Under the pieces are notes generated by a model, which had not been told where the DNA came from, did not search any database, and saw only the letters and a list, made by a program, of their open reading frames with translations. Below are positions 2-61,423 of a DNA stretch of 64,000 bases, piece by piece. Position 1 is the stretch's first letter, and each line of letters opens with the position of its first letter. Both the position numbers and the translations under genes were made by a program. Source of the DNA: Escherichia coli O157:H7 (GTDB lineage Bacteria > Pseudomonadota > Gammaproteobacteria > Enterobacterales > Enterobacteriaceae); assembly GCF_013167455.1 (NCBI RefSeq), contig NZ_CP038328.1. One strand, written 5' to 3'.

Positions 2-2062
2 GTCAGCGAGTTGATTACCGATGTGCCTGACAAAGAGATGCTCGGGCTGAACATTGTGGAATTTGCTGGTGATGATGAGGCGCTGATTGACGAGCGGGTA
101 AATGCACTCTGTGCGCGGTTGGATGAGCTGATCGCCAGTCATCAAGCAGGTGTCATCGGCTGGCAGATGTGCCGTGAGCTGGCGGGGGTTGAACGTATCT
201 ATGCAATGCGCAAAAAAGCCGTTGGTCTGCTTGGCAATGCCAAAGGTGCCGCTAAGCCAATTCCGTTTGCTGAGGATACCTGCGTACCGCCGGAACATCT
301 GGCCGATTATATTGCTGAATTTCGCGCGCTGCTCGACAGCCACGGCTTAAGCTACGGTATGTTCGGTCACGTCGACGCAGGTGTCTTGCATGTCCGTCCG
401 GCACTGGATATGTGCGATCCGCAACAAGAGATTTTGATGAAGCAAATCTCTGATGACGTGGTGGCGCTGACTGCGAAATACGGTGGTTTGTTGTGGGGCG
501 AGCACGGCAAAGGTTTTCGCGCTGAATACAGCCCGGCGTTTTTCGGTGAGGAACTTTTTGCAGAACTGCGCAAAGTGAAAGCGGCATTTGACCCGCATAA
601 CCGACTCAACCCAGGGAAGATTTGCCCGCCAGAAGGTCTCGATGCGCCGATGATGAAAGTGGACGCGGTGAAGCGCGGTACATTCGATCGGCAGATCCCC
701 ATTGCGGTACGCCAGCAGTGGCGCGGTGCGATGGAGTGTAACGGCAACGGTTTATGCTTCAACTTTGATGCCCGTAGTCCGATGTGTCCGTCGATGAAGA
801 TCACCCAGAACCGGATTCATTCACCGAAAGGGCGCGCAACGCTGGTGCGTGAATGGCTGCGTTTGTTGGCGGATCGCGGCGTTGATCCACTCAAACTGGA
901 ACAAGAACTGCCTGAATCCGGCGTCAGCTTGCGGACGTTAATTGCCCGCACGCGCAATAGCTGGCATGCGAATAAAGGCGAATATGACTTCTCACACGAA
1001 GTCAAAGAGGCGATGTCGGGCTGTCTGGCCTGTAAAGCTTGTTCGACCCAGTGCCCCATCAAAATTGATGTGCCGGAGTTTCGCTCTCGTTTTCTGCAGC
1101 TCTATCACACCCGTTATTTACGCCCGCTGCGCGACCACCTCGTCGCTACGGTCGAGAGCTACGCGCCGCTGATGGCACGCGCGCCGAAAACCTTTAACTT
1201 CTTCATTAACCAGCCGCTGGTGCGCAAACTCTCGGAAAAACATATCGGCATGGTTGATTTGCCGCTGCTGTCGGTCCCCTCGCTACAACAACAAATGGTG
1301 GGGCATCGCTCGGCAAACATGACGCTGGAACAGCTTGAATCTCTCAATGCAGAGCAGAAAGCGCGCACAGTGTTGGTGGTGCAGGACCCCTTTACCAGCT
1401 ATTACGATGCGCAAGTGGTGGCGGATTTTGTCCGTCTGGTCGAAAAATTAGGTTTCCAGCCTGTGTTACTGCCATTTTCGCCAAATGGCAAAGCCCAGCA
1501 TATTAAAGGTTTTCTTAATCGTTTTGCGAAGACGGCGAAAAAGACGGCGGATTTCCTCAACCGTATGGCGAAGCTGGGTATGCCAATGGTGGGCGTCGAT
1601 CCGGCGCTGGTACTTTGTTATCGCGATGAATATAAACTGGCGCTGGGCGAGGAGCGTGGCGAGTTTAACGTCTTACTGGCGAATGAATGGCTGGCAAGCG
1701 CACTTGAGTCACAGCCAGTGGCTACAGTCAGCGGTGAATCATGGTATTTCTTTGGTCACTGTACCGAAGTTACCGCCTTGCCGGGTGCGCCAGCACAATG
1801 GGCCGCGATATTTGCCCGTTTTGGCGCGAAACTGGAAAATGTCAGCGTGGGTTGCTGCGGCATGGCAGGGACTTACGGACATGAAGCGAAAAACCATAAA
1901 AATTCGCTCGGGATCTATGAGTTATCCTGGCATCAGGCTATGCAGCGACTGCCGCGTAACCGCTGTCTGGCGACCGGATATTCCTGCCGTAGTCAGGTCA
2001 AACGGGTTGAAGGCACGGGGGTACGCCATCCTGTGCAGGCTTTACTGGAGATTATTAAATGA
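2..2062 (+). CDS. ydiJ: FAD-linked oxidoreductase YdiJ, C-terminal part (5' end lies upstream of the window)
   Basis: Open frame from window edge to TAA at 2060-2062; Cys-rich 4Fe-4S-like motifs in translation (CxxCxxC...CP); lies upstream of menI/ydiH/suf as in K-12. Confidence 0.8.
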   Translation, partial: VSELITDVPDKEMLGLNIVEFAGDDEALIDERVNALCARLDELIASHQAGVIGWQMCRELAGVERIYAMRKKAVGLLGNAKGAAKPIPFAEDTCVPPEHLADYIAEFRALLDSHGLSYGMFGHVDAGVLHVRPALDMCDPQQEILMKQISDDVVALTAKYGGLLWGEHGKGFRAEYSPAFFGEELFAELRKVKAAFDPHNRLNPGKICPPEGLDAPMMKVDAVKRGTFDRQIPIAVRQQWRGAMECNGNGLCFNFDARSPMCPSMKITQNRIHSPKGRATLVREWLRLLADRGVDPLKLEQELPESGVSLRTLIARTRNSWHANKGEYDFSHEVKEAMSGCLACKACSTQCPIKIDVPEFRSRFLQLYHTRYLRPLRDHLVATVESYAPLMARAPKTFNFFINQPLVRKLSEKHIGMVDLPLLSVPSLQQQMVGHRSANMTLEQLESLNAEQKARTVLVVQDPFTSYYDAQVVADFVRLVEKLGFQPVLLPFSPNGKAQHIKGFLNRFAKTAKKTADFLNRMAKLGMPMVGVDPALVLCYRDEYKLALGEERGEFNVLLANEWLASALESQPVATVSGESWYFFGHCTEVTALPGAPAQWAAIFARFGAKLENVSVGCCGMAGTYGHEAKNHKNSLGIYELSWHQAMQRLPRNRCLATGYSCRSQVKRVEGTGVRHPVQALLEIIK

Positions 2063-2757: not shown

Positions 2758-2982
2758 TCCTGACTTAATGCCGCAAGTTCGCCAAATCGACCTGGATTAA
2801 CCTCCGTCCAGGTTCGATGACCTTCTTAATACTGCTTATCTACCCGCCTGATATTGTTCAAAAATAATACTAATCGCAGTTTGTGTTAAAACGGCGGCTT
2901 AGCTTTATGAGATTATTCTTATCGTCCCTTCAAGAGCTAAGCCACTGAGAGTGCCGGAGATAAGCGCCGGATGGGGTAGAAA

Positions 2983-3020
2983 CCCTTAAGCCTGTGTCGC
3001 ACAGACTTAAGGGTTTTCTT
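2983..3020 (+). terminator. Rho-independent terminator hairpin (possibly 3' end of sRNA RydB)
   Basis: Near-perfect inverted repeat cccttaagcctgtg / cacagacttaaggg followed by ttttcttatttc on + strand, about 225 nt past ydiH stop. Confidence 0.5.
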
Positions 3021-3305: not shown

Positions 3306-3674
3306 ATGGACATGCATTCAGGAACCTTTAATCCACAGGATTTCGCCTGGCAAGGCTTAACGCTGACACCCGCAGCCGCTGTCCACATCCGCGAGCTGGT
3401 GGCAAAGCAGCCGGGTATGGTCGGCGTGCGCTTAGGTGTGAAGCAAACGGGCTGCGCGGGCTTTGGCTATGTGCTCGACAGTGTTAGCGAGCCGGACAAA
3501 GACGATCTGCTGTTTGAACACGACGGCGCGAAGCTGTTTGTCCCGCTGCAAGCGATGCCGTTTATTGATGGCACGGAAGTCGATTTCGTTCGTGAAGGAC
3601 TTAATCAGATATTCAAATTTCACAACCCTAAAGCCCAGAATGAATGTGGCTGTGGCGAAAGCTTTGGGGTATAG
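3306..3674 (+). CDS. sufA: Fe-S cluster A-type carrier SufA
   Basis: 122-aa ORF with C-terminal CGCGESF motif; first gene of suf operon. Confidence 0.9.
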
Positions 3675-3682
3675 GCGGTACT

Positions 3683-5170
3683 ATGTCTCGTAATACTGAA
3701 GCAACTGACGATGTCAAAACCTGGACCGGCGGCCCGCTGAATTATAAAGAAGGATTCTTCACCCAGTTAGCCACCGATGAGCTGGCAAAGGGGATAAACG
3801 AAGAGGTGGTGCGCGCAATTTCGGCGAAGCGTAATGAGCCGGAGTGGATGCTGGAGTTTCGTCTAAACGCCTATCGCGCATGGCTGGAGATGGAAGAACC
3901 GCACTGGTTGAAAGCGCACTACGACAAGCTGAATTATCAGGATTACAGCTACTACTCGGCACCATCGTGCGGTAATTGTGACGACACTTGCGCGTCTGAA
4001 CCTGGCGCGGTGCAGCAAACTGGCGCGAACGCCTTTTTAAGTAAAGAGGTGGAGGCGGCGTTTGAGCAGTTGGGTGTTCCCGTGCGGGAAGGCAAAGAGG
4101 TGGCGGTGGATGCCATTTTCGACTCAGTTTCGGTTGCCACTACTTATCGCGAAAAACTGGCGGAGCAGGGAATTATTTTCTGTTCCTTTGGTGAGGCGAT
4201 CCACGATCACCCGGAACTGGTGCGTAAATATCTCGGCACCGTGGTGCCGGGGAATGACAACTTCTTTGCCGCGCTTAATGCGGCGGTAGTCTCTGACGGT
4301 ACGTTTATTTATGTGCCTAAAGGCGTGCGCTGCCCGATGGAACTTTCCACCTATTTTCGCATTAACGCGGAAAAAACCGGACAGTTTGAGCGCACCATTC
4401 TGGTGGCCGACGAAGACAGCTACGTCAGCTACATTGAAGGCTGTTCCGCTCCGGTGCGTGACAGCTATCAGTTGCACGCGGCAGTGGTGGAAGTCATCAT
4501 CCATAAAAACGCCGAGGTGAAATATTCCACGGTACAAAACTGGTTCCCTGGCGATAACAACACCGGCGGTATTCTCAACTTCGTCACCAAGCGTGCTTTG
4601 TGCGAAGGCGAAAACAGCAAAATGTCATGGACGCAATCAGAAACCGGGTCAGCGATTACGTGGAAATATCCCAGCTGCATTTTGCGCGGCGATAACTCCA
4701 TTGGTGAGTTTTACTCAGTGGCGCTGACCAGCGGTCATCAGCAAGCGGATACCGGCACCAAGATGATCCACATCGGTAAAAACACCAAATCGACCATTAT
4801 CTCGAAAGGGATCTCTGCCGGACATAGCCAGAACAGTTATCGCGGCTTAGTGAAAATCATGCCGACGGCAACCAATGCGCGCAATTTCACTCAGTGCGAC
4901 TCAATGCTGATTGGCGCTAATTGTGGGGCGCATACCTTCCCGTATGTCGAATGTCGCAATAACAGCGCACAACTGGAGCACGAGGCAACGACATCACGTA
5001 TTGGTGAAGATCAACTGTTTTACTGCCTGCAACGCGGGATCAGCGAAGAAGACGCCATCTCGATGATTGTTAACGGTTTCTGCAAAGACGTGTTCTCAGA
5101 ACTGCCGCTGGAATTTGCCGTTGAAGCACAAAAACTCCTCGCCATCAGTCTTGAACACAGCGTCGGATAA
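3683..5170 (+). CDS. sufB: Fe-S cluster assembly scaffold SufB (495 aa)
   Basis: Start chosen at ATG 3683 ([14 protein letters not shown]), not track start 3644 which overlaps sufA; translation matches SufB. Confidence 0.9.
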
Positions 5171-5179
5171 GGAATAAAC

Positions 5180-5926
5180 ATGTTAAGTATTAAAGATTTA
5201 CACGTCAGCGTGGAAGATAAAGCTATCCTGCGTGGATTAAGCCTCGACGTTCGTCCCGGCGAAGTTCACGCCATTATGGGGCCAAACGGTTCGGGCAAAA
5301 GTACCTTATCGGCAACGCTTGCCGGGCGAGAAGATTATGAAGTGACGGGCGGCACGGTTGAGTTCAAAGGCAAAGATTTGCTTGCACTGTCGCCGGAAGA
5401 TCGTGCAGGCGAAGGCATCTTTATGGCCTTCCAGTATCCGGTGGAGATTCCAGGTGTCAGTAACCAGTTTTTCCTGCAAACGGCACTTAATGCGGTGCGC
5501 AGCTATCGCGGCCAGGAAACGCTCGACCGCTTTGATTTTCAGGATTTGATGGAAGAGAAAATCGCTCTCCTGAAGATGCCGGAAGATTTATTAACCCGTT
5601 CGGTAAACGTTGGTTTTTCCGGCGGCGAGAAAAAGCGCAACGATATTTTGCAAATGGCGGTGCTGGAACCGGAGTTATGCATTCTTGATGAATCGGACTC
5701 CGGGCTGGATATCGACGCATTAAAAGTGGTCGCCGATGGCGTGAACTCGCTGCGTGATGGCAAGCGCTCATTCATCATTGTTACGCACTACCAACGCATT
5801 CTCGACTACATCAAGCCTGATTACGTTCATGTGCTATATCAGGGACGAATTGTGAAATCCGGCGATTTCACGTTGGTCAAACAACTGGAGGAGCAGGGTT
5901 ATGGCTGGCTTACCGAACAGCAGTAA
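5180..5926 (+). CDS. sufC: Fe-S cluster assembly ATPase SufC
   Basis: 248 aa; Walker A GPNGSGKST; ABC signature SGGEKKR. Confidence 0.92.
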   Translation: MLSIKDLHVSVEDKAILRGLSLDVRPGEVHAIMGPNGSGKSTLSATLAGREDYEVTGGTVEFKGKDLLALSPEDRAGEGIFMAFQYPVEIPGVSNQFFLQTALNAVRSYRGQETLDRFDFQDLMEEKIALLKMPEDLLTRSVNVGFSGGEKKRNDILQMAVLEPELCILDESDSGLDIDALKVVADGVNSLRDGKRSFIIVTHYQRILDYIKPDYVHVLYQGRIVKSGDFTLVKQLEEQGYGWLTEQQ

Positions 5927-7172
5927 CGCGCTGCAACAGTGGCATCACTTGTTTGAAGCTGAAGGGACAAAACGCTCCCCGCAAGCACAGCAGCATTTAC
6001 AACAATTGCTGCGTACCGGACTGCCGACACGTAAACATGAAAACTGGAAATATACGCCGCTGGAAGGGCTGACCAATAGTCAGTTTGTCAGCATTGCGGG
6101 AGAGATATCCCCACAGCAGCGAGATGCCTTAGCGTTAACGTTAGACGCTGTGCGGCTGGTATTTGTCGATGGACGTTACGTGCCTGCGCTGAGCGATGCG
6201 ACTGAAGGCAGCGGGTATGAAGTGAGCATTAACGACGACCGTCAGGGGTTACCCGATGCTATTCAGGCGGAAGTGTTTCTGCATTTGACGGAAAGCCTGG
6301 CACAAAGCGTGACGCATATCGCCGTGAAGCGCGGTCAACGGCCGGCAAAGCCATTGCTGTTAATGCATATCACCCAGGGCGTGGCAGGTGAAGAGGTGAA
6401 CACTGCCCATTACCGACATCATCTGGAGCTGGCGGAAGGTGCCGAAGCAACGGTGATCGAACATTTTGTCAGCCTTAATGATGCTCGTCATTTTACCGGG
6501 GCACGGTTCTCTATCAACGTCGCAGCGAATGCCCACTTGCAGCATATCAAGCTGGCGTTTGAAAACCCGCTCAGTCACCACTTTGCCCATAACGATTTGT
6601 TGCTGGCTGACGATGCCACCGCATTTAGCCACAGTTTCCTGCTGGGTGGCGCAGTGTTACGACACAACACCAGTACGCAACTCAATGGCGAAAACTGCAC
6701 GCTGCGGATCAATAGCCTGGCGATGCCGGTGAAAAACGAGGTGTGTGATACCCGTACCTGGCTGGAACACAATAAAGGTTTTTGTAACAGCCGACAGTTG
6801 CACAAAACTATCGTCAGCGACAAAGGCCGCGCGGTATTTAACGGTTTGATCAACGTCGCGCAGCACGCCATCAAAACGGATGGTCAGATGACCAACAATA
6901 ATCTGCTGATGGGCAAACTGGCGGAAGTGGATACGAAACCGCAGCTGGAAATCTATGCAGATGATGTGAAATGCAGCCACGGCGCGACGGTGGGGCGTAT
7001 TGATGATGAACAGATGTTCTATCTGCGCTCGCGCGGGATCAATCAGCAGGATGCCCAGCAGATGATCATTTACGCCTTTGCTGCCGAACTGACGGAAGCA
7101 CTGCGTGATGAGGGGCTTAAACAGCAGGTGCTGACCCGAATCGGTCAACGGCTGCCAGGAGGTGCAAGATGA
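5901..7172 (+). CDS. sufD: Fe-S cluster assembly protein SufD
   Basis: 423 aa; overlaps sufC by 26 nt; synteny. Confidence 0.9.
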
Positions 7173-8389
7173 CTTTTTCCGTCGACAAAGTGCGGGCCGA
7201 CTTTCCGGTGCTTTCGCGTGAGGTAAACGGTTTGCCGCTGGCTTATCTCGACAGCGCCGCCAGTGCGCAGAAACCGAGCCAGGTGATTGACGCCGAGGCC
7301 GAGTTTTATCGTCATGGCTACGCGGCGGTGCATCGCGGTATTCATACCTTAAGCGCCCAGGCGACCGAGAAAATGGAGAACGTGCGCAAGCGGGCATCGC
7401 TGTTTATTAATGCCCGTTCGGCGGAAGAGCTGGTGTTCGTCCGCGGCACGACGGAAGGGATCAATCTGGTCGCCAATAGCTGGGGCAACAGCAACGTGCG
7501 GGCGGGCGATAACATCATCATAAGTCAGATGGAGCACCACGCTAACATTGTTCCCTGGCAGATGCTTTGCGCACGCGTTGGCGCAGAGCTGCGTGTGATC
7601 CCGCTCAATCCCGACGGTACGTTGCAACTGGAGACGCTGCCTACGCTGTTTGATGAGAAAACTCGCCTGCTGGCAATTACTCATGTCTCCAACGTGCTTG
7701 GCACAGAAAATCCACTGGCGGAAATGATCACGCTTGCGCACCAGCATGGCGCAAAAGTGCTGGTGGATGGCGCTCAGGCGGTGATGCATCATCCGGTGGA
7801 TGTTCAGGCGCTGGATTGCGATTTTTACGTGTTTTCCGGGCATAAACTGTATGGCCCCACCGGGATTGGCATTCTTTATGTCAAAGAAGCCTTGCTACAG
7901 GAGATGCCGCCGTGGGAAGGGGGCGGTTCTATGATCGCCACCGTCAGCCTGAGTGAAGGCACTACCTGGACCAAAGCACCGTGGCGGTTTGAAGCCGGTA
8001 CACCCAATACCGGGGGCATCATTGGTCTTGGCGCGGCGCTGGAGTATGTTTCGGCGCAGGGGCTTAATAACATAGCCGAGTATGAACAGAATCTGATGCA
8101 TTACGCGCTATCACAGCTGGAATCTGTACCGGATCTCACTCTCTATGGCCCACAAAACAGGCTTGGCGTTATTGCTTTTAATCTCGGTAAACACCACGCC
8201 TATGATGTTGGCAGTTTTCTCGATAATTACGGCATTGCTGTGCGTACCGGACATCACTGCGCTATGCCATTAATGGCCTATTATAACGTCCCTGCTATGT
8301 GTCGGGCGTCGCTGGCCATGTATAACACCCATGAAGAAGTGGATCGTCTGGTGACCGGACTGCAACGTATTCACCGTCTGCTGGGATAA
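7169..8389 (+). CDS. sufS: Cysteine desulfurase SufS (PLP-dependent)
   Basis: 406 aa; 4-nt overlap with sufD; aminotransferase class V motifs (e.g. [12 protein letters not shown]). Confidence 0.92.
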
Positions 8390-8401
8390 CAGGGAGGCAC
8401 T

Positions 8402-8818
8402 ATGGCTTTATTGCCGGATAAAGAAAAGTTGCTGCGTAATTTTTTACGCTGCGCCAACTGGGAAGAGAAATATCTCTACATTATTGAGCTGGGCCAGCGT
8501 CTGCCAGAATTACGCGACGAAGACAGAAGCCCACAAAATAGCATTCAGGGCTGCCAGAGTCAGGTGTGGATTGTCATGCGTCAGAATGCGCAGGGAATTA
8601 TTGAATTGCAGGGCGACAGCGATGCGGCGATTGTGAAAGGGCTTATTGCGGTCGTCTTTATTCTCTACGATCAGATGACGCCGCAGGATGTTGTCAATTT
8701 CGATGTGCGTCCGTGGTTTGAAAAAATGGCACTCACCCAACATCTCACCCCATCTCGTTCACAAGGTCTGGAAGCGATGATTCGCGCAATTCGCGCCAAA
8801 GCCGCTGCACTTAGCTAA
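8402..8818 (+). CDS. sufE: Sulfur acceptor SufE
   Basis: 138 aa; follows sufS. Confidence 0.9.
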
Positions 8819-8966
8819 ACTAAAGGGACAGCTTTCATCCGGTTGGCTCACATTGCCGGATGGTCAATGTTTACACTGACCTGCACAGGAGTGTTTCGGT
8901 TTCAGGTGAACATAAGCGCCATCCGACGTTTCAGCGTGAGTCTCCGGCAAATACAGGAGGTTTACA

Positions 8967-9971
8967 ATGAAACGCGCGTCTTTGCTTACACTCACGCTTA
9001 TCGGCGCTTTTAGTGCCATCCAGGCTGCCTGGGCGGTTGATTATCCGCTACCACCAACCGGAAGCCGACTGGTTGGGCAAAATCAAACGTATACGGTGCA
9101 GGAAGGGGATAAAAACCTTCAGGCCATCGCCCGACGTTTTGATACTGCGGCAATGTTGATCCTTGAAGCCAATAACACTATCGCCCCGGTGCCAAAACCC
9201 GGTACGACGATAACTATTCCTTCGCAACTGTTATTACCTGATGCGCCGCGTCAGGGGATTATCGTTAACCTTGCAGAGCTGCGCCTTTATTATTATCCGC
9301 CGGGAGAAAATATCGTGCAGGTTTATCCGATAGGTATTGGCTTGCAGGGGCTGGAAACGCCAGTGATGGAAACGCGTGTGGGGCAGAAAATCCCTAACCC
9401 AACCTGGACGCCTACGGCAGGCATTCGTCAACGTTCGCTGGAGCGTGGCATTAAATTACCGCCAGTCGTTCCTGCCGGACCAAATAACCCGCTAGGACGT
9501 TACGCACTGCGCCTCGCGCATGGTAATGGCGAATACCTCATTCATGGCACCAGTGCGCCGGACAGCGTCGGTTTGCGCGTCAGTTCAGGGTGTATTCGCA
9601 TGAATGCACCGGATATTAAAGCCTTGTTCTCCAGCGTGCGGACGGGAACGCCGGTGAAAGTGATCAACGAACCAGTGAAATATTCCGTGGAGCCTAACGG
9701 GATGCGTTATGTTGAAGTACATCGACCACTATCGGCAGAAGAACAGCAGAACGTTCAGACAATGCCATACACACTGCCAGCAGGCTTTACGCAATTTAAA
9801 GACAATAAGGCTGTAGATCAGAAGTTAGTCGATAAAGCGTTGTATCGTCGGGCAGGGTATCCGGTTGCGGTGAGCAGTGGAGCAACTCCCACAGCCAGCA
9901 ATGCGCCTTCAGTAGAGTCAGCGCAGAATGGTGAACCAGAGCAAGGGAATATGTTACGCGCGACGCAGTAG
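8967..9971 (+). CDS. ldtE: L,D-transpeptidase LdtE (YnhG), LysM + YkuD domains
   Basis: 334 aa; signal peptide; catalytic HGTS...SSGCIRM motif. Confidence 0.85.
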
Positions 9972-12549: not shown

Positions 12550-12759
12550 ATGGGAAATCGGACAAAAGAGGATGAACTGTACCGAGAAATGTGCAGAGTT
12601 GTCGGTAAAGTTGTGCTGGAAATGCGCGATCTGGGGCAGGAACCAAAGCATATTGTTATCGCAGGCGTATTACGTACAGCATTAGCCAATAAACGCATTC
12701 AGCGCAGTGAGCTGGAAAAGCAGGCGATGGAAACCGTCATTAACGCACTGGTAAAATGA
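12550..12759 (+). CDS. fumD: Fumarase D (YdhZ), 69 aa
   Basis: 69-aa ORF; position between pykF and ydhY matches K-12. Confidence 0.7.
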   Translation: MGNRTKEDELYREMCRVVGKVVLEMRDLGQEPKHIVIAGVLRTALANKRIQRSELEKQAMETVINALVK

Positions 12760-12999
12760 CCATTCAGGATGAGGCGATAAGCTTCATCCTGATATTCTTG
12801 CTTCAGTTGCGGTCCAGTTAATCATTCTAAATAACAACTGCTGAAATTATACGAATTTCGATATGTGTTTTAATTTGTAACGATAATATTATTTTTATTT
12901 TCTGCAATGACCGTCACAAATAATTGTCGCTTAAGTTAAATTCATTTCAAATGATAATAAATATCAGTTCACTTATAATTTCTTGCTTTGTAATTTTAA

Positions 13000-13013
13000 T
13001 TGATAATGATCAA
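13000..13013. promoter_or_regulatory. FNR-box (TTGAT-N4-ATCAA) upstream of ydhY
   Basis: ttgataatgatcaa, a perfect match to the FNR/CRP-family half-sites with FNR spacing, in the AT-rich region before ydhY. Confidence 0.5.
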
Positions 13014-13214
13014 TGTTAAGAGCCCAGAATAACCACATTATTTTTTCTCCTAACCATAAAGGATTGGTTTATCGGCGTTAAATATTTTCTCATACACTAT
13101 CGGGTTAGGGAAAATATCTGGTGTTGGGGACAGAGTCAGCAGCGTATTAGCTGAATGCTTAATATCAGGCTGCTGAATTGTCAGCACTGTGTTTGCGAAG
13201 AGGATGCGAAATAA

Positions 13215-15964
<2,750 letters not shown>

Positions 15965-15967
15965 GGA

Positions 15968-16615
15968 ATGGGTAAGATGAACCATCAGGATGAATTGCCG
16001 TTAGCGAAAGTCAGCGAAGTTGACGAGGCGAAGCGGCAATGGTTGCAGGGGATGCGTCACCCCGTTGATACGGTAACCGAACCAGAACCGGCTGAAATCC
16101 TGGCAGAGTTCATTCGCCAGCATTCTGTGGCTGGGCAGCTGGTGGCGCGCGCCGTGTTTCTCTCGCCACCCTATTCAGTTGCAGAAGAGGAACTGTCAGT
16201 TTTGCTGGAAAACATCAAGCAGAACGGAGACTACGCGGATATCGCTTGTATGACGGGAAGTCAGGATGATTACTATTACTCAACGCAGGCCATGAGTGAA
16301 AACTACGCGGCGATGTCTTTGCAAGTTGTGGAGCAGGACATTTGTCGCGCCATTGCACACGCCGTTCGTTTTGAGTGCCAGACGTATCCTCGTCCTTACA
16401 AAGTCGCCATGCTGATGCAAGCGCCATATTACTTCCAGGAAGCGCAGATTGAAGCCGCGATCGCCGCAATGGATGTTGCACCTGAATATGCCGATATACG
16501 GCAGGTAGAGTCATCGACGGCGGTGTTGTACTTGTTTAGCGAGCGATTTATGACCTATGGCAAGGCTTATGGCTTATGCGAATGGTTCGAGGTAGAGCAG
16601 TTTCAGAACCCCTGA
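15968..16615 (+). CDS. ydhW: Uncharacterised protein YdhW
   Basis: 215 aa; operon position. Confidence 0.75.
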   Translation: MGKMNHQDELPLAKVSEVDEAKRQWLQGMRHPVDTVTEPEPAEILAEFIRQHSVAGQLVARAVFLSPPYSVAEEELSVLLENIKQNGDYADIACMTGSQDDYYYSTQAMSENYAAMSLQVVEQDICRAIAHAVRFECQTYPRPYKVAMLMQAPYYFQEAQIEAAIAAMDVAPEYADIRQVESSTAVLYLFSERFMTYGKAYGLCEWFEVEQFQNP

Positions 16616-16678
16616 AATTTCAGGGAGATGTCATGGATAGGGTGGACAGTTGCAGCCACTGCATTAGGGGATAATCAG

Positions 16679-17347
16679 ATGTCCTTCACTCGACGCAAAT
16701 TTGTTCTGGGGATGGGAACAGTAATCTTTTTTACTGGTTCTGCGTCTTCTCTGTTAGCGAACACGAGGCAAGAAAAGGAAGTTCGGTATGCCATGATTCA
16801 TGACGAGTCACGGTGCAATGGCTGTAATATTTGCGCCCGCGCATGCCGTAAAACTAACCACGCCCCCGCTCAGGGAAGCCGTTTATCGATAGCACACATT
16901 CCAGTCACCGATAACGACAACGAAACGCAGTATCACTTTTTTCGCCAGTCATGTCAGCACTGCGAAGATGCTCCGTGCATCGACGTATGCCCGACAGGGG
17001 CGTCGTGGCGTGATGAGCAGGGGATCGTGCGGGTAGAAAAATCGCAGTGCATCGGCTGCAGTTATTGCATTGGCGCTTGTCCGTACCAGGTTCGCTACCT
17101 TAACCCTGTCACTAAAGTGGCAGATAAATGTGATTTCTGCGCTGAGTCCCGACTGGCAAAAGGCTTTCCGCCCATTTGCGTCAGCGCTTGCCCGGAACAC
17201 GCATTGATCTTTGGTCGCGAAGATAGCCCTGAAATTCAGGCGTGGTTGCAGGATAATAAATACTATCAATATCAGCTACCTGGTGCCGGGAAACCGCATC
17301 TGTATCGCCGGTTCGGTCAACATTTGATTAAAAAGGAAAATGTATGA
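16679..17347 (+). CDS. ydhX: Tat-exported 4Fe-4S ferredoxin-like protein YdhX (222 aa)
   Basis: Start MSFTRRKFVLGMG with twin-arginine motif; four Cys clusters. Confidence 0.8.
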   Translation: MSFTRRKFVLGMGTVIFFTGSASSLLANTRQEKEVRYAMIHDESRCNGCNICARACRKTNHAPAQGSRLSIAHIPVTDNDNETQYHFFRQSCQHCEDAPCIDVCPTGASWRDEQGIVRVEKSQCIGCSYCIGACPYQVRYLNPVTKVADKCDFCAESRLAKGFPPICVSACPEHALIFGREDSPEIQAWLQDNKYYQYQLPGAGKPHLYRRFGQHLIKKENV

Positions 17348-18129
17348 ACCCGTCGCAACATGCTGAACAGTTTCAGAGCCAGTTAGCGAACTATGTGCCA
17401 CAGTTCACTCCCGAATTTTGGCCGGTGTGGTTGATCATTGCCGGAGTATTGCTGGTTGGGATGTGGTTGGTGCTGGGGCTGCACGCCTTGCTTCGTGCTC
17501 GTGGCGTGAAGAAATCAGCCACCGATCATGGTGAGAGGATTTATCTTTACAGCAAAGCGGTCAGATTATGGCACTGGTCGAATGCGTTACTCTTTGTATT
17601 GTTGCTGGCAAGTGGGCTGATAAATCACTTTGCGCTGGTGGGCGCAACTGCGGTTAAAAGTCTGGTTGCGGTGCATGAAGTTTGCGGATTTTTGTTACTG
17701 GCATGCTGGCTCGGCTTTGTTCTGATCAATGGCGTTGGGGGTAATGGCCACCACTATCGCATTCGTCGTCAGGGTTGGCTGGAGCGGGCGGCAAAACAAA
17801 CGCGATTTTATTTGTTTGGCATTATGCAGGGGGAAGAACATCCTTTCCCGGCAACAACCCAGTCTAAATTTAATCCCTTACAGCAGGTTGCCTATGTTGG
17901 TGTCATGTATGGATTGCTGCCGTTGTTACTATTGACGGGGCTGCTGTGTCTCTATCCGCAAGCCGTGGGAGATGTGTTTCCTGGCGTAAGATACTGGTTA
18001 TTGCAGGCGCATTTTGCTCTGGCATTTATAAGCCTCTTTTTTATCTTCGGTCATCTTTATCTTTGCACCACGGGGCGTACGCCACACGAAACCTTTAAAA
18101 GCATGGTCGATGGCTATCACCGGCACTAA
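17344..18129 (+). CDS. ydhU: Membrane cytochrome b / PhsC-like quinol anchor YdhU
   Basis: 261 aa; hydrophobic; 4-nt overlap with ydhX. Confidence 0.8.
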   Translation: MNPSQHAEQFQSQLANYVPQFTPEFWPVWLIIAGVLLVGMWLVLGLHALLRARGVKKSATDHGERIYLYSKAVRLWHWSNALLFVLLLASGLINHFALVGATAVKSLVAVHEVCGFLLLACWLGFVLINGVGGNGHHYRIRRQGWLERAAKQTRFYLFGIMQGEEHPFPATTQSKFNPLQQVAYVGVMYGLLPLLLLTGLLCLYPQAVGDVFPGVRYWLLQAHFALAFISLFFIFGHLYLCTTGRTPHETFKSMVDGYHRH

Positions 18130-18132
18130 CGA

Positions 18133-18945
18133 ATGATCATTACACGAGCAGACCTGCGAGAATGGCGTATCGGAGCGGTGATGTATCGCTGGTTCCTGCG
18201 CCATTTCCCACGCGGCGGTAGTTATGCCGATATTCATCATGCACTGATTGAGGAAGGATATACGGACTGGGCGGAGAGTCTGGTTGAGTATGCGTGGAAA
18301 AAATGGCTGGCGGATGAAAACTTCGCGCATCAGGAAGTTTCCTCTATGCAAAAACTGGCCACAGACCCCGGAGAGAGAGCATTTTGCAGTCAGTTTGCCC
18401 GCAGCGACGATCATGCTCGCATCGGCTGTTGTGAGGATAACGCCAGAATCGCAACCGCTGGGTATGCTGCACAAATTGCCAGTATGGGTTATAGCGTGCG
18501 GATTGGAAGTGTCGGCTTTAACAGTCACATTGGCAGCTCCGGTGAGCGCGCACGGGTTGCTGTAACCGGCAATTCTTCGCGGATAAGCAGCGCTGGAGAT
18601 AGCAGTCGGATTGCGAATACCGGAATGCGAGTACGCGTTTGTACATTGGGTAAACGGTGTCATGTCGCCAGTAATGGTGACCTGGTGCAAATCGCCAGCT
18701 TTGGCGCAAACGCCAGAATTGCCAACAGCGGCGACAATGTACACATCATTGCCAGCGGTGAAAATTCAACGGTAGTGAGCACGGGCGTGGTCGACTCAAT
18801 TATTCTCGGGCCAGGGGGCAGCGCCGCACTGGCATATCATGACGGCGAAAGAGTTCGCTTCGCCGTCGCCATTGAAGGTGAAAACAATATTCGAGCCGGA
18901 GTCCGCTATCGTCTTAATGAACAGCATCAGTTTGTTGAGTGCTGA
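18133..18945 (+). CDS. ydhT: Uncharacterised protein YdhT with nonapeptide repeats
   Basis: 270 aa; about 13 consecutive 9-residue units xxx[RQH][IV]xxxG. Confidence 0.8.
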   Translation: MIITRADLREWRIGAVMYRWFLRHFPRGGSYADIHHALIEEGYTDWAESLVEYAWKKWLADENFAHQEVSSMQKLATDPGERAFCSQFARSDDHARIGCCEDNARIATAGYAAQIASMGYSVRIGSVGFNSHIGSSGERARVAVTGNSSRISSAGDSSRIANTGMRVRVCTLGKRCHVASNGDLVQIASFGANARIANSGDNVHIIASGENSTVVSTGVVDSIILGPGGSAALAYHDGERVRFAVAIEGENNIRAGVRYRLNEQHQFVEC

Positions 18946-27893: not shown

Positions 27894-28826
27894 ATGTGGT
27901 CAGAATATTCACTCGAAGTTGTTGATGCGGTAGCGCGTAATGGTAGTTTTAGCGCTGCGGCACAGGAGCTGCATCGCGTTCCTTCTGCGGTCAGCTATAC
28001 CGTGCGTCAGCTGGAAGAGTGGCTGGCGGTGCCGCTGTTTGAACGACGGCACCGTGATGTGGAGCTGACCGCTGCCGGAGCGTGGTTTCTCAAAGAAGGG
28101 CGCTCTGTTGTCAAAAAAATGCAGATCACCCGCCAGCAATGTCAGCAGATAGCGAACGGCTGGCGCGGTCAGTTAGCTATCGCAGTGGATAATATTGTCA
28201 GGCCAGAACGTACACGGCAGATGATCGTTGATTTTTATCGCCATTTTGATGATGTCGAACTTCTTGTCTTTCAGGAAGTGTTCAACGGTGTCTGGGATGC
28301 GCTTTCCGACGGGCGCGTGGAACTGGCGATTGGCGCAACACGCGCGATTCCGGTAGGCGGTCGTTATGCCTTCCGGGATATGGGGATGCTAAGCTGGAGT
28401 TGCGTTGTTGCCAGCCATCACCCGCTGGCGTTGATGGATGGCCCGTTCAGCGATGATACGTTGCGCAACTGGCCGTCGTTGGTGCGCGAAGACACCTCGC
28501 GAACGCTACCTAAGCGTATTACCTGGTTGCTGGATAACCAAAAAAGAGTTGTCGTGCCTGACTGGGAATCATCGGCAACCTGTATCTCGGCAGGATTATG
28601 CATAGGGATGGTGCCAACACATTTCGCCAAACCGTGGCTTAATGAGGGGAAGTGGGTAGCATTAGAACTGGAAAACCCCTTTCCGGATTCGGCATGTTGT
28701 CTGACATGGCAGCAAAATGATATGTCGCCTGCGTTAACCTGGTTGCTTGAGTATCTCGGCGATAGTGAGACGCTGAATAAGGAGTGGCTGCGGGAGCCGG
28801 AAGAGACTCCCGCAACGGGTGATTAA
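27894..28826 (+). CDS. ydhB: LysR-family transcriptional regulator YdhB (PunR)
   Basis: 310 aa; N-terminal HTH ([23 protein letters not shown]); 4-nt convergent overlap with purR. Confidence 0.8.

Positions 28827-58534: not shown

Positions 58535-61423
<2,889 letters not shown>

Follow-up and report, generated by a model that had tools for sequence, protein, structure and literature searches.

The stretch of DNA analysed here, referred to as the window, comprises 64,000 nt of the Escherichia coli O157:H7 chromosome (contig NZ_CP038328.1 of assembly GCF_013167455.1) and spans the genes from ydiJ to ydgJ. Eight pairs of neighboring co-directional genes in this window, several of them in the suf, ydh, and rsx operons, share nucleotides at the point where one reading frame ends and the next one begins. 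These overlaps are the following (negative distances denote shared nucleotides):

2059-2062, plus strand: ydiJ/menI, -4, an ATGA joining the ydiJ stop with the menI start
5901-5926, plus strand: sufC/sufD, -26
7169-7172, plus strand: sufD/sufS, -4, an ATGA joining the sufD stop with the sufS start
17344-17347, plus strand: ydhX/ydhU, -4, ATGA; ydhU encodes a phsC-like cytochrome b
45556, minus strand: ydhJ/ydhK, -1, a TAATG joining the ydhJ stop with the ydhK start
56153, minus strand: rsxE/nth, -1, a TGATG joining the rsxE stop with the nth start
60846-60853, minus strand: rsxB/rsxC, -8, ATGCTTAA, joining the rsxB stop with the rsxC start
61424, minus strand: rsxA/rsxB, -1, a TAATG joining the rsxA stop with the rsxB start

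An initial annotation, made from the sequence, had claimed these eight overlaps. All of them are present, and the RefSeq/PGAP annotation and the curated K-12 MG1655 record, which is independent of it, concur on each. The interval 5901-7172 that had been put forward as the example is exactly sufD, of 423 aa. The junctions are best read as ordinary intra-operon junctions of E. coli, correctly annotated, a reading that is given a probability of about 0.85 and for which the agreement of two independent annotations was counted. Nor are the overlaps the product of chance or of mechanical open reading frame (ORF) calling, because they are conserved across species.

The RefSeq coding sequences (CDS) were transferred to the window from NZ_CP022689.1 (O157:H7 strain CDC#03-98). 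Compared with the window, this chromosome has 8 single-nucleotide polymorphisms (SNPs), all located within the first 32 kb, and a difference of one T in a homopolymer of lhr, so that coordinates past ~35031 are shifted by -1. The transferred CDS translate in the window without internal stops, the sole exception being ydhF. Over positions 5000-9000, the window is identical (100%) to O157:H7 chromosomes, and upward of 5,400 E. coli genomes match it at 95% or above. For the suf genes, the comparison set consisted of 80 Enterobacteriaceae loci from species-representative genomes, obtained in one scan and with a SufD identity of 74-97%; the genes were placed in each locus by tblastn. The remaining junctions were read directly in loci of other genera anchored on homologues of SufE, PdxY, and YdhU. 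The YdhU homologues served as anchor for ydhX/ydhU, since the SufE-anchored loci of Salmonella, Klebsiella, and Cedecea lack the ydh operon. The Cronobacter locus, which lacked synteny, gave no information on the junctions.

Start codons were compared through the duplex energy with the anti-Shine-Dalgarno (anti-SD) sequence, taking as alternatives the in-frame ATG, GTG, and TTG codons within 50 codons. The experimental start-site data used all derive from K-12. Among them, INRI-seq records initiation on isolated transcripts with only 30 nt upstream of the start, hence with no upstream translation, and its global detection rate is ~70% (PMC9825163); the values quoted below come from part of its Table S2. 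In rows b1620-b1766 of that table, the in vivo Ribo-RET column reads 0 or FALSE for all minus-strand genes, including tyrS, thrS, and rplT, which looks like a strand-handling problem. This column was disregarded for suf, ydh, and menI.

Seven of the junctions consist of two adjacent CDS on the same strand whose start and stop codons share bases or lie no more than 8 nt apart (NTGA, TRATG, or NTGNNTRR). They also fall within the spacing of -8 to +10 that is compatible with reinitiation, the range used by Huber et al. 2023. The sufC/sufD overlap, at -26, lies outside both this range and the short-overlap class (-4/-1/-8), and is filed as a long phase-1 overlap: as 26 mod 3 = 2, it belongs to the series -8, -11, -14, and so on (definition in PMC10666635). 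The overlaps had been described as pervasive, which is too strong a word, as they involve 8 of the 44 co-directional CDS pairs of the window. Twelve of these pairs (27%) are spaced at -8 to +6, and the genome-wide figure for E. coli is 707 of 2,987 unidirectional pairs, or 24% (Huber et al. 2023, PMC10666635). Tight junctions are thus as dense as the genome average, with no enrichment in the window relative to the genome (binomial p=0.34). The supplement of that survey already tabulates sufC/sufD at -26, sufD/sufS at -4, rsxB/rsxC at -8, and rsxC/rsxD at 0. The overlap classes and how often they occur have been published, as have these same pairs, and no new question is opened by them.

The longest of the overlaps involves the last codons of sufC and a ribosome-binding site located further inside this gene:

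5180-5926, plus strand: sufC, as in the RefSeq and K-12 annotations; its last 26 nt are also sufD codons 1-9
5887-5893, plus strand: GGAGGAG, the SD of sufD, inside sufC codons 236-238 (L-E-E), at -14 to -8 from the ATG
5901-7172, plus strand: sufD, encoding the scaffold subunit of SufBC2D, 423 aa

The two frames of 5901-5926 read Y-G-W-L-T-E-Q-Q-stop at the end of SufC and M-A-G-L-P-N-S-S-N at the start of SufD. The sufD ATG is present, with an overlap of exactly -26, in all 80 Enterobacteriaceae loci having both genes. The gaps between the non-overlapping suf genes vary (2-10 nt for sufA/B, mostly 9-31 nt for sufB/C with one locus at 159, and 8-15 nt for sufS/E). In Cedecea and Buttiauxella, a 6-nt insertion directly follows the sufC stop, outside the overlap and in frame for sufD. 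The nucleotides of the sufD SD, which forms a duplex of -9.3 kcal/mol with the anti-SD, are invariant or 99% conserved among 79 distinct sequences.

Synonymous variation in sufC is strongly reduced over the same region. The last 13 degenerate sufC codons have a mean synonymous-codon entropy of 0.31 bits, vs 1.05 bits for the other 206 (Mann-Whitney p=1.7e-6), and the sufC tail is the lowest among 207 sliding windows. Codons 236-238, which hold the SD, have 0.1, 0, and 0 bits; Gly codon 240, in the spacer, is free, with all 4 codons occurring (1.59 bits); and codons 241-248, covering the ATG and the overlap, are frozen. Around the sufD ATG, positions -16 to +25 are near-invariant, and the third positions of sufC codons farther upstream vary. 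Such a pattern is predicted for a functional internal ribosome-binding site combined with a second reading frame. Dual coding at sufC/sufD is considered real because synonymous variation in sufC is suppressed and the overlap length is invariant; a conserved start and length together with suppressed synonymous change in the upstream frame, the marks of dual coding, are both found here. The same approach is uninformative for overlaps of 1-4 nt.

The sufD ATG is the first start of its ORF. The next in-frame start is a TTG at codon 17 lacking an SD, and the first internal methionine of SufD is residue 155. Residues 1-423 align to the SufD chains of PDB 2ZU0, 5AWF, and 5AWG, and the homologues are 423 aa long across Enterobacteriaceae and carry PF01458 (SUFBD core family). 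Translation of sufD most likely starts from its own conserved SD, because reinitiation at -26 is predicted to be near nil by published measurements. A hairpin sequestering the SD and the AUG is predicted in E. coli, and was rejected as a conserved element. Its fold z-scores amount to only -0.9 and -1.1; with RNAalifold, 81 sequences yield another structure, a weak one of -6.7 kcal/mol in which compensatory pairs are lacking; and position -2, paired in the E. coli fold, is free to vary in the alignment.

At the other end of sufD lies the second suf overlap, and upstream of sufC the gene sufB, whose start had been placed at the shorter of two possible positions:

7157-7162, plus strand: AGGAGG, the SD of sufS, inside the C-terminal Pro-Gly-Gly codons of sufD
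3683-5170, plus strand: sufB with the 495-aa start, 8 nt past the sufA stop; the mechanical ORF begins at 3644

The sufD/sufS distance is -4 in 76 of 78 loci, an earlier stop giving +2 in S. enterica arizonae and +1 in Kosakonia sacchari. The sufS SD forms a duplex of -11.6 kcal/mol. The C-terminal Gly-Gly of SufD is 99% conserved and its codons vary; toward the 3' end of sufD, where the sufS SD lies, synonymous entropy is not significantly lowered (0.90 vs 1.07 bits, p=0.32). N-terminal proteomics, which the initial annotation had named as a check, bears out the sufS start: the peptide MIFSVDKVR lies at the annotated start in the K-12 TRAINSPOTTER data (PMC13245402 Table S1). The same table flags this start as having Ribo-RET and INRI-seq support, the former in contrast with the zero in the Ribo-RET column of INRI-seq Table S2. 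The INRI-seq signal of sufS is 55-70 counts per million (CPM). For sufB, the choice of the shorter start is correct, as all 75 loci compared keep both the ATG and the N-terminus MSRNT. No SD precedes the upstream ATG at 3644 (-0.1, vs -6.3 at 3683), and in 16 of the 75 loci any in-frame start upstream of sufB is missing, making the longer ORF impossible there.

The rsx junctions show a similar stability. The rsxA/rsxB overlap is -1 in the five genera examined, and the rsxB/rsxC overlap is the identical ATGCTTAA in the four genera with a called rsxC (E. coli, Salmonella, Kosakonia, and Cedecea); in a Kluyvera metagenome scaffold rsxC was not called. The distance for rsxE/nth is -1 in E. coli, Salmonella, Kosakonia, and Kluyvera and -4 in Cedecea, while for rsxG/rsxE it is +3 in four genera and -4 in Cedecea. 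The rsxE start codon is GTG in E. coli and ATG in four other genera. In the part of the tables used, rsxB has an INRI-seq signal of 141-179 CPM and a Ribo-RET value of 71, and nth has 44-81 CPM and 5.3. No start codon precedes the rsxC ATG in its ORF, and the one after it corresponds to Met25, downstream of the N-terminal region. Further inside the gene (minus strand, window 58582-59197), rsxC holds a 96-nt (32-aa) tandem repeat with 6.4 copies and a 92% match. The length of RsxC varies, from 772 aa in the window to 740 in K-12, 735 in Salmonella, 663 in Kosakonia, and 653 in Cedecea.

In the ydh region, the second gene for which a shorter start had been chosen is ydhV:

13862-15964, plus strand: ydhV with the 700-aa start, 20 nt past the ydhY stop; the mechanical ORF begins at 13778

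This choice also holds, on a conserved M[TA]NGWTGNI N-terminus and an AAGGA SD in comparison with Citrobacter sp. NCU1, Leminorella, and Budvicia, and in these three any in-frame start upstream of ydhV is lacking. At the annotated start, INRI-seq gives 137-189 CPM. The ydhX/ydhU overlap is -4 in the same three organisms, and the ydhU signal is 17-26 CPM. The start of ydhW is disputed (window 15964-15980). In K-12 it is the ATG at 15968 (215 aa), 3 nt past the ydhV stop and with no SD (+0.6 kcal/mol), and in the part of the INRI-seq table used there is no peak at it. The PGAP start, the ATG at 15977 (212 aa), has an SD of -7.2 kcal/mol and looks better supported. The whole ydhYVWXUT cluster (window 12550-18945) is intact in Citrobacter sp. 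NCU1, Leminorella, and Budvicia and missing at the matching position in Salmonella, Klebsiella oxytoca, and Cedecea; this comparison of loci suggests a patchy, possibly horizontal distribution.

The ydiJ/menI overlap of -4 is also found in Salmonella and Klebsiella oxytoca. In Salmonella it takes the form TTGA (L085 3162), with TTG as menI start, vs ATGA in E. coli and Klebsiella. The isolated menI start has an INRI-seq signal of 757-1613 CPM. For ydhJ/ydhK the distance is -1 in E. coli and Salmonella and -4 in Kosakonia and Kluyvera. In all, start positions are stable across the genera sampled while the junction type shifts between -1, -4, and small positive gaps, in agreement with the evolutionary path that Huber et al. 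2023 describe (PMC10666635).

The initial annotation had further held that the overlaps fix the start codons, and this logic fails. In the eight genes concerned, the overlapping start is simply the first ATG, GTG, or TTG of its ORF, and its anti-SD pairing is the best or near-best among the in-frame alternatives. The overlaps are also not what fixes the starts of sufB and ydhV, because in both the correct start avoids an overlap. These two starts are fixed by conservation, and SD strength and the experimental initiation data support the starts as well. In the INRI-seq rows used, peaks occur at six of the eight overlapping starts (sufD being marginal), close to the 70% global rate, and because of this most overlapping starts seem able to initiate alone in vitro.

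The mechanism proposed for these junctions depends on their length. The seven short ones belong to the three commonest classes, -4 (ATGA), -1 (TAATG/TGATG), and -8 (ATGNNTAA), spacings that are known to be enriched (PMC12548453; PMC10666635). At such a junction, a ribosome terminating on the upstream gene would sit directly on the next start, and local reinitiation could then promote initiation of the next gene, as could an initiation region kept unfolded by the upstream ribosome, with the extent of this help probably varying by gene. By analogy with pairs measured elsewhere, coupling is plausible at these seven junctions, and the inference is weakest for sufC/sufD. Reinitiation falls with overlap length, declining below -10 and reaching approximately zero at -25 (PMC4538824; PMC12548453), and Tian and Salis advise overlaps of at least 25 nt to prevent coupling (PMC4538824). 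Long phase-1 overlaps (-8, -11, -14, and so on) are described as uncoupled, and as retained since they are not trimmable to -4 or -1 (PMC10666635). The sufC/sufD overlap is one of those that point mutation cannot shorten to -4 or -1. Here sufD would most likely be initiated by 30S subunits recruited to the strong GGAGGAG in sufC codons 236-238, with the 26 shared nt encoding both the SufC tail and SufD residues 1-9. Overlap lengths would persist mainly because an indel in a dual-coding stretch damages two proteins.

Several observations weigh against this account and against the starts on which it builds. The isolated sufD initiation region gives a marginal INRI-seq signal (0-10 CPM in the rows used) despite its strong SD, and its predicted unfolding cost, 14.7 kcal/mol, is the highest of 23 initiation regions compared. 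Initiation of sufD driven by the SD alone may therefore have a low efficiency, and sufC translation possibly contributes to it. The SDs of rsxB, rsxC, and ydhK are weak (-3.3 to -3.8 kcal/mol, with -3.3 for ydhK), and for rsxC and ydhK neither an INRI-seq nor a Ribo-RET peak appears in the part of the tables used, so that their starts derive from ORF structure and conservation. Among the TRAINSPOTTER rows listed from this region, which cover SufS, YdhY, and YdiH only, there is no N-terminal peptide for SufD, MenI, YdhU, YdhK, RsxB, RsxC, or Nth. A search of the literature for N-terminal sequencing of SufBCD found nothing relevant, and neither did one for coupling experiments on the eight pairs.

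Of the other explanations, the one that survives best is a neutral one, which is possible though tentative. According to it, the overlaps are by-products of genome compaction and stop-codon drift, devoid of function and kept by mutational accessibility and by the cost of indels in dual-coding DNA. The step from ATG to ATGA requires one base, and the abundance of -4 overlaps has been ascribed to this ease of evolution (PMC12548453). Junction types change with no gene loss, from -1 to -4, +3 to -4, or -4 to +1 or +2, and tight junctions are no commoner in the window than elsewhere in the genome. Long phase-1 overlaps are likewise explained by stop-codon loss and the inability to shorten (PMC10666635), and the distance from SufC to SufB/D has a median of +2.6 nt across prokaryotes (q1 -4, q3 18.3, n=1139), which makes the -26 lineage-specific rather than required. 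However, the genome-wide enrichment of -4, -1, and -8 spacings and of subunits of one complex argues for some selection on tight spacing. The sufD SD, frozen at synonymous sites, indicates that at least the internal initiation signal is under selection.

Strict coupling, the view of the initial annotation, would have all eight overlaps, sufC/sufD included, exist so that the downstream gene is translated only by ribosomes finishing the upstream one. In reporter tests, four of five native overlapping E. coli pairs were indeed strictly coupled (PMC6728339), and pairs spaced at -8 to +10 show a 4.5-fold enrichment in subunits of a single complex (PMC10666635), a kind of pair to which SufC/SufD, RsxA/B/C, and probably YdhJ/K and YdhX/U belong. 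The weak SDs and the lack of stand-alone in vitro initiation at rsxC and ydhK, with sufD marginal, point in the same direction. Nevertheless, the isolated regions of menI, rsxB, nth, sufS, and ydhU initiate with no upstream translation, and the fifth reporter pair, bioBF, overlaps and yet is uncoupled (PMC6728339). Depletion of the ribosome recycling factor (RRF) leaves coupling and ribosome-density ratios at overlapping pairs unchanged genome-wide, which argues against a major role for reinitiation in E. coli (PMC7538156), and the literature is divided on the coupling mechanism. The near absence of reinitiation at -25 speaks against strict coupling at sufC/sufD, and the loss of the sufD/sufS overlap in two of 78 species and the free interchange of junction types speak against it more broadly. 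Finally, for ydiJ/menI, sufD/sufS, and rsxE/nth no shared complex is listed or known (the Huber 2023 supplement gives 'CMPLX not' for sufD/sufS). Strict coupling of all eight pairs is considered unlikely.

It is still less probable that the 26-nt overlap and the frozen SD are a selected device, uncoupling SufD from reinitiating SufC ribosomes and perhaps gating the SD by ribosome occupancy or by a hairpin of the E. coli type. If this were true, the synthesis rate of SufD would be roughly half that of SufC, in line with the SufB1:C2:D1 stoichiometry.

An annotation artefact, in which the true start of one or more genes lies downstream and there is no overlap, is very improbable, and would concern rsxC, ydhK, and sufD the most. 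The initiation data for these three genes and the weak SDs of rsxC, ydhK, and rsxB can be cited in its favor, as can the tendency of gene callers toward the longest ORF. Against it, at every junction sampled the position of the ATG is kept from genus to genus, and ~30% of all annotated E. coli starts are without an INRI-seq peak anyway (PMC9825163). For sufD there is no plausible alternative start, given the TTG at codon 17 and the methionine at 155, and the overlap shows dual-coding constraint. The sole alternative for rsxC, Met25, would remove an N-terminal segment that the RnfC_N Pfam family matches in homologues.

The least credible proposal, almost certainly wrong, is a programmed frameshift site in the overlap giving a SufC-SufD fusion protein: three database proteins of 658-663 aa do join SufC to SufD (P0002, P0004, and P0006), but each is a singleton with its own junction, located within the overlap or close to it (EEQVMAGLPN, EEQGYGLPNSS, and EEQGYGSNALQQ), as expected of three unrelated indels or assembly errors, no slippery motif was noted in 5901-5926, and the solved SufBC2D and SufC2D2 structures hold separate full-length chains. 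These singleton fusions most likely reflect sporadic indels or assembly errors. SufD-SufS fusions are likewise present in the database (P0019, P0027, and P0096).

Ordinary, correctly annotated junctions remain the preferred reading of the eight overlaps, and their value is mainly one of quality control. The gene models of the window are sound, including the shorter starts of sufB and ydhV, and short overlaps of this kind should not be "repaired" by annotation pipelines. The sufC tail, in turn, provides a clean example of dual coding plus an internal ribosome-binding site marking synonymous sites.

Other observations were made in the window. The aldo/keto reductase gene ydhF (window 42045-42941) has an internal stop and is a pseudogene in RefSeq, and is intact in K-12. 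In lhr (minus strand, ~35021-35031), the homopolymer of the window has one T fewer than that of CDC#03-98; the gene is intact in the window (1538 aa) and annotated as frameshifted in CDC#03-98. The convergent genes punR and purR share 4 nt (28823-28826), a palindromic TTAA acting as stop on both strands. Similarly, sodC and ydhK converge with zero gap (43543/43544), and the called genes overlap by 25 nt in Salmonella and 8 nt in Kosakonia. The small RNA RydB, annotated in K-12 between ydiH and sufA (window ~2900-3000), is absent from the PGAP annotation of O157. Two of the 8 SNPs relative to CDC#03-98 (2925 and 2938) are located in the ydiH-sufA intergenic region.

Compared with known systems, seven of the junctions are exact instances of the short co-directional start/stop overlaps surveyed by Huber et al. 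2019/2023 and Brown & Wade 2025, with three ATGA, three TAATG/TGATG, and one ATGCTTAA. There is no difference from those surveyed, and their density in the window equals the genome average. Coupled E. coli pairs such as hyfH-hyfI, menD-menH, and ydbH-ynbE, together with trpB-trpA and rplK-rplA, are alike in their -4/-1 geometry, in having the SD inside the upstream ORF, and in that several are subunits of one complex. In these pairs coupling has been measured, whereas for the short overlaps of the window it is plausible by analogy, and bioB-bioF has the same geometry and is yet uncoupled.

The COG-pair table of Huber 2023 places the individual junctions in a wider context. From SufB/D to SufS (CsdA/SufS) the median distance is -1 (q1 -4, q3 25.2, n=713), and from RnfB to RnfC it is -4 (q1 -8, q3 5, n=282), so that sufD/sufS at -4 and rsxB/rsxC at -8 in E. 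coli are typical of orthologous pairs across prokaryotes. From RnfA to RnfB the median is +10.85 (q1 -1, q3 18.35, n=456), and the enterobacterial -1 stands at the tight end of this range. The sufC/sufD overlap shares phase and length with the long phase-1 overlaps of Huber et al. 2023, and falls in a range for which no coupling by reinitiation is expected. To that survey it adds detail at the level of a single junction, namely a length fixed in 80 Enterobacteriaceae and a frozen internal SD. Across prokaryotes, the distance from SufC to SufB/D is usually -4 to +18, and the -26 of sufC/sufD is a lineage-specific long overlap.

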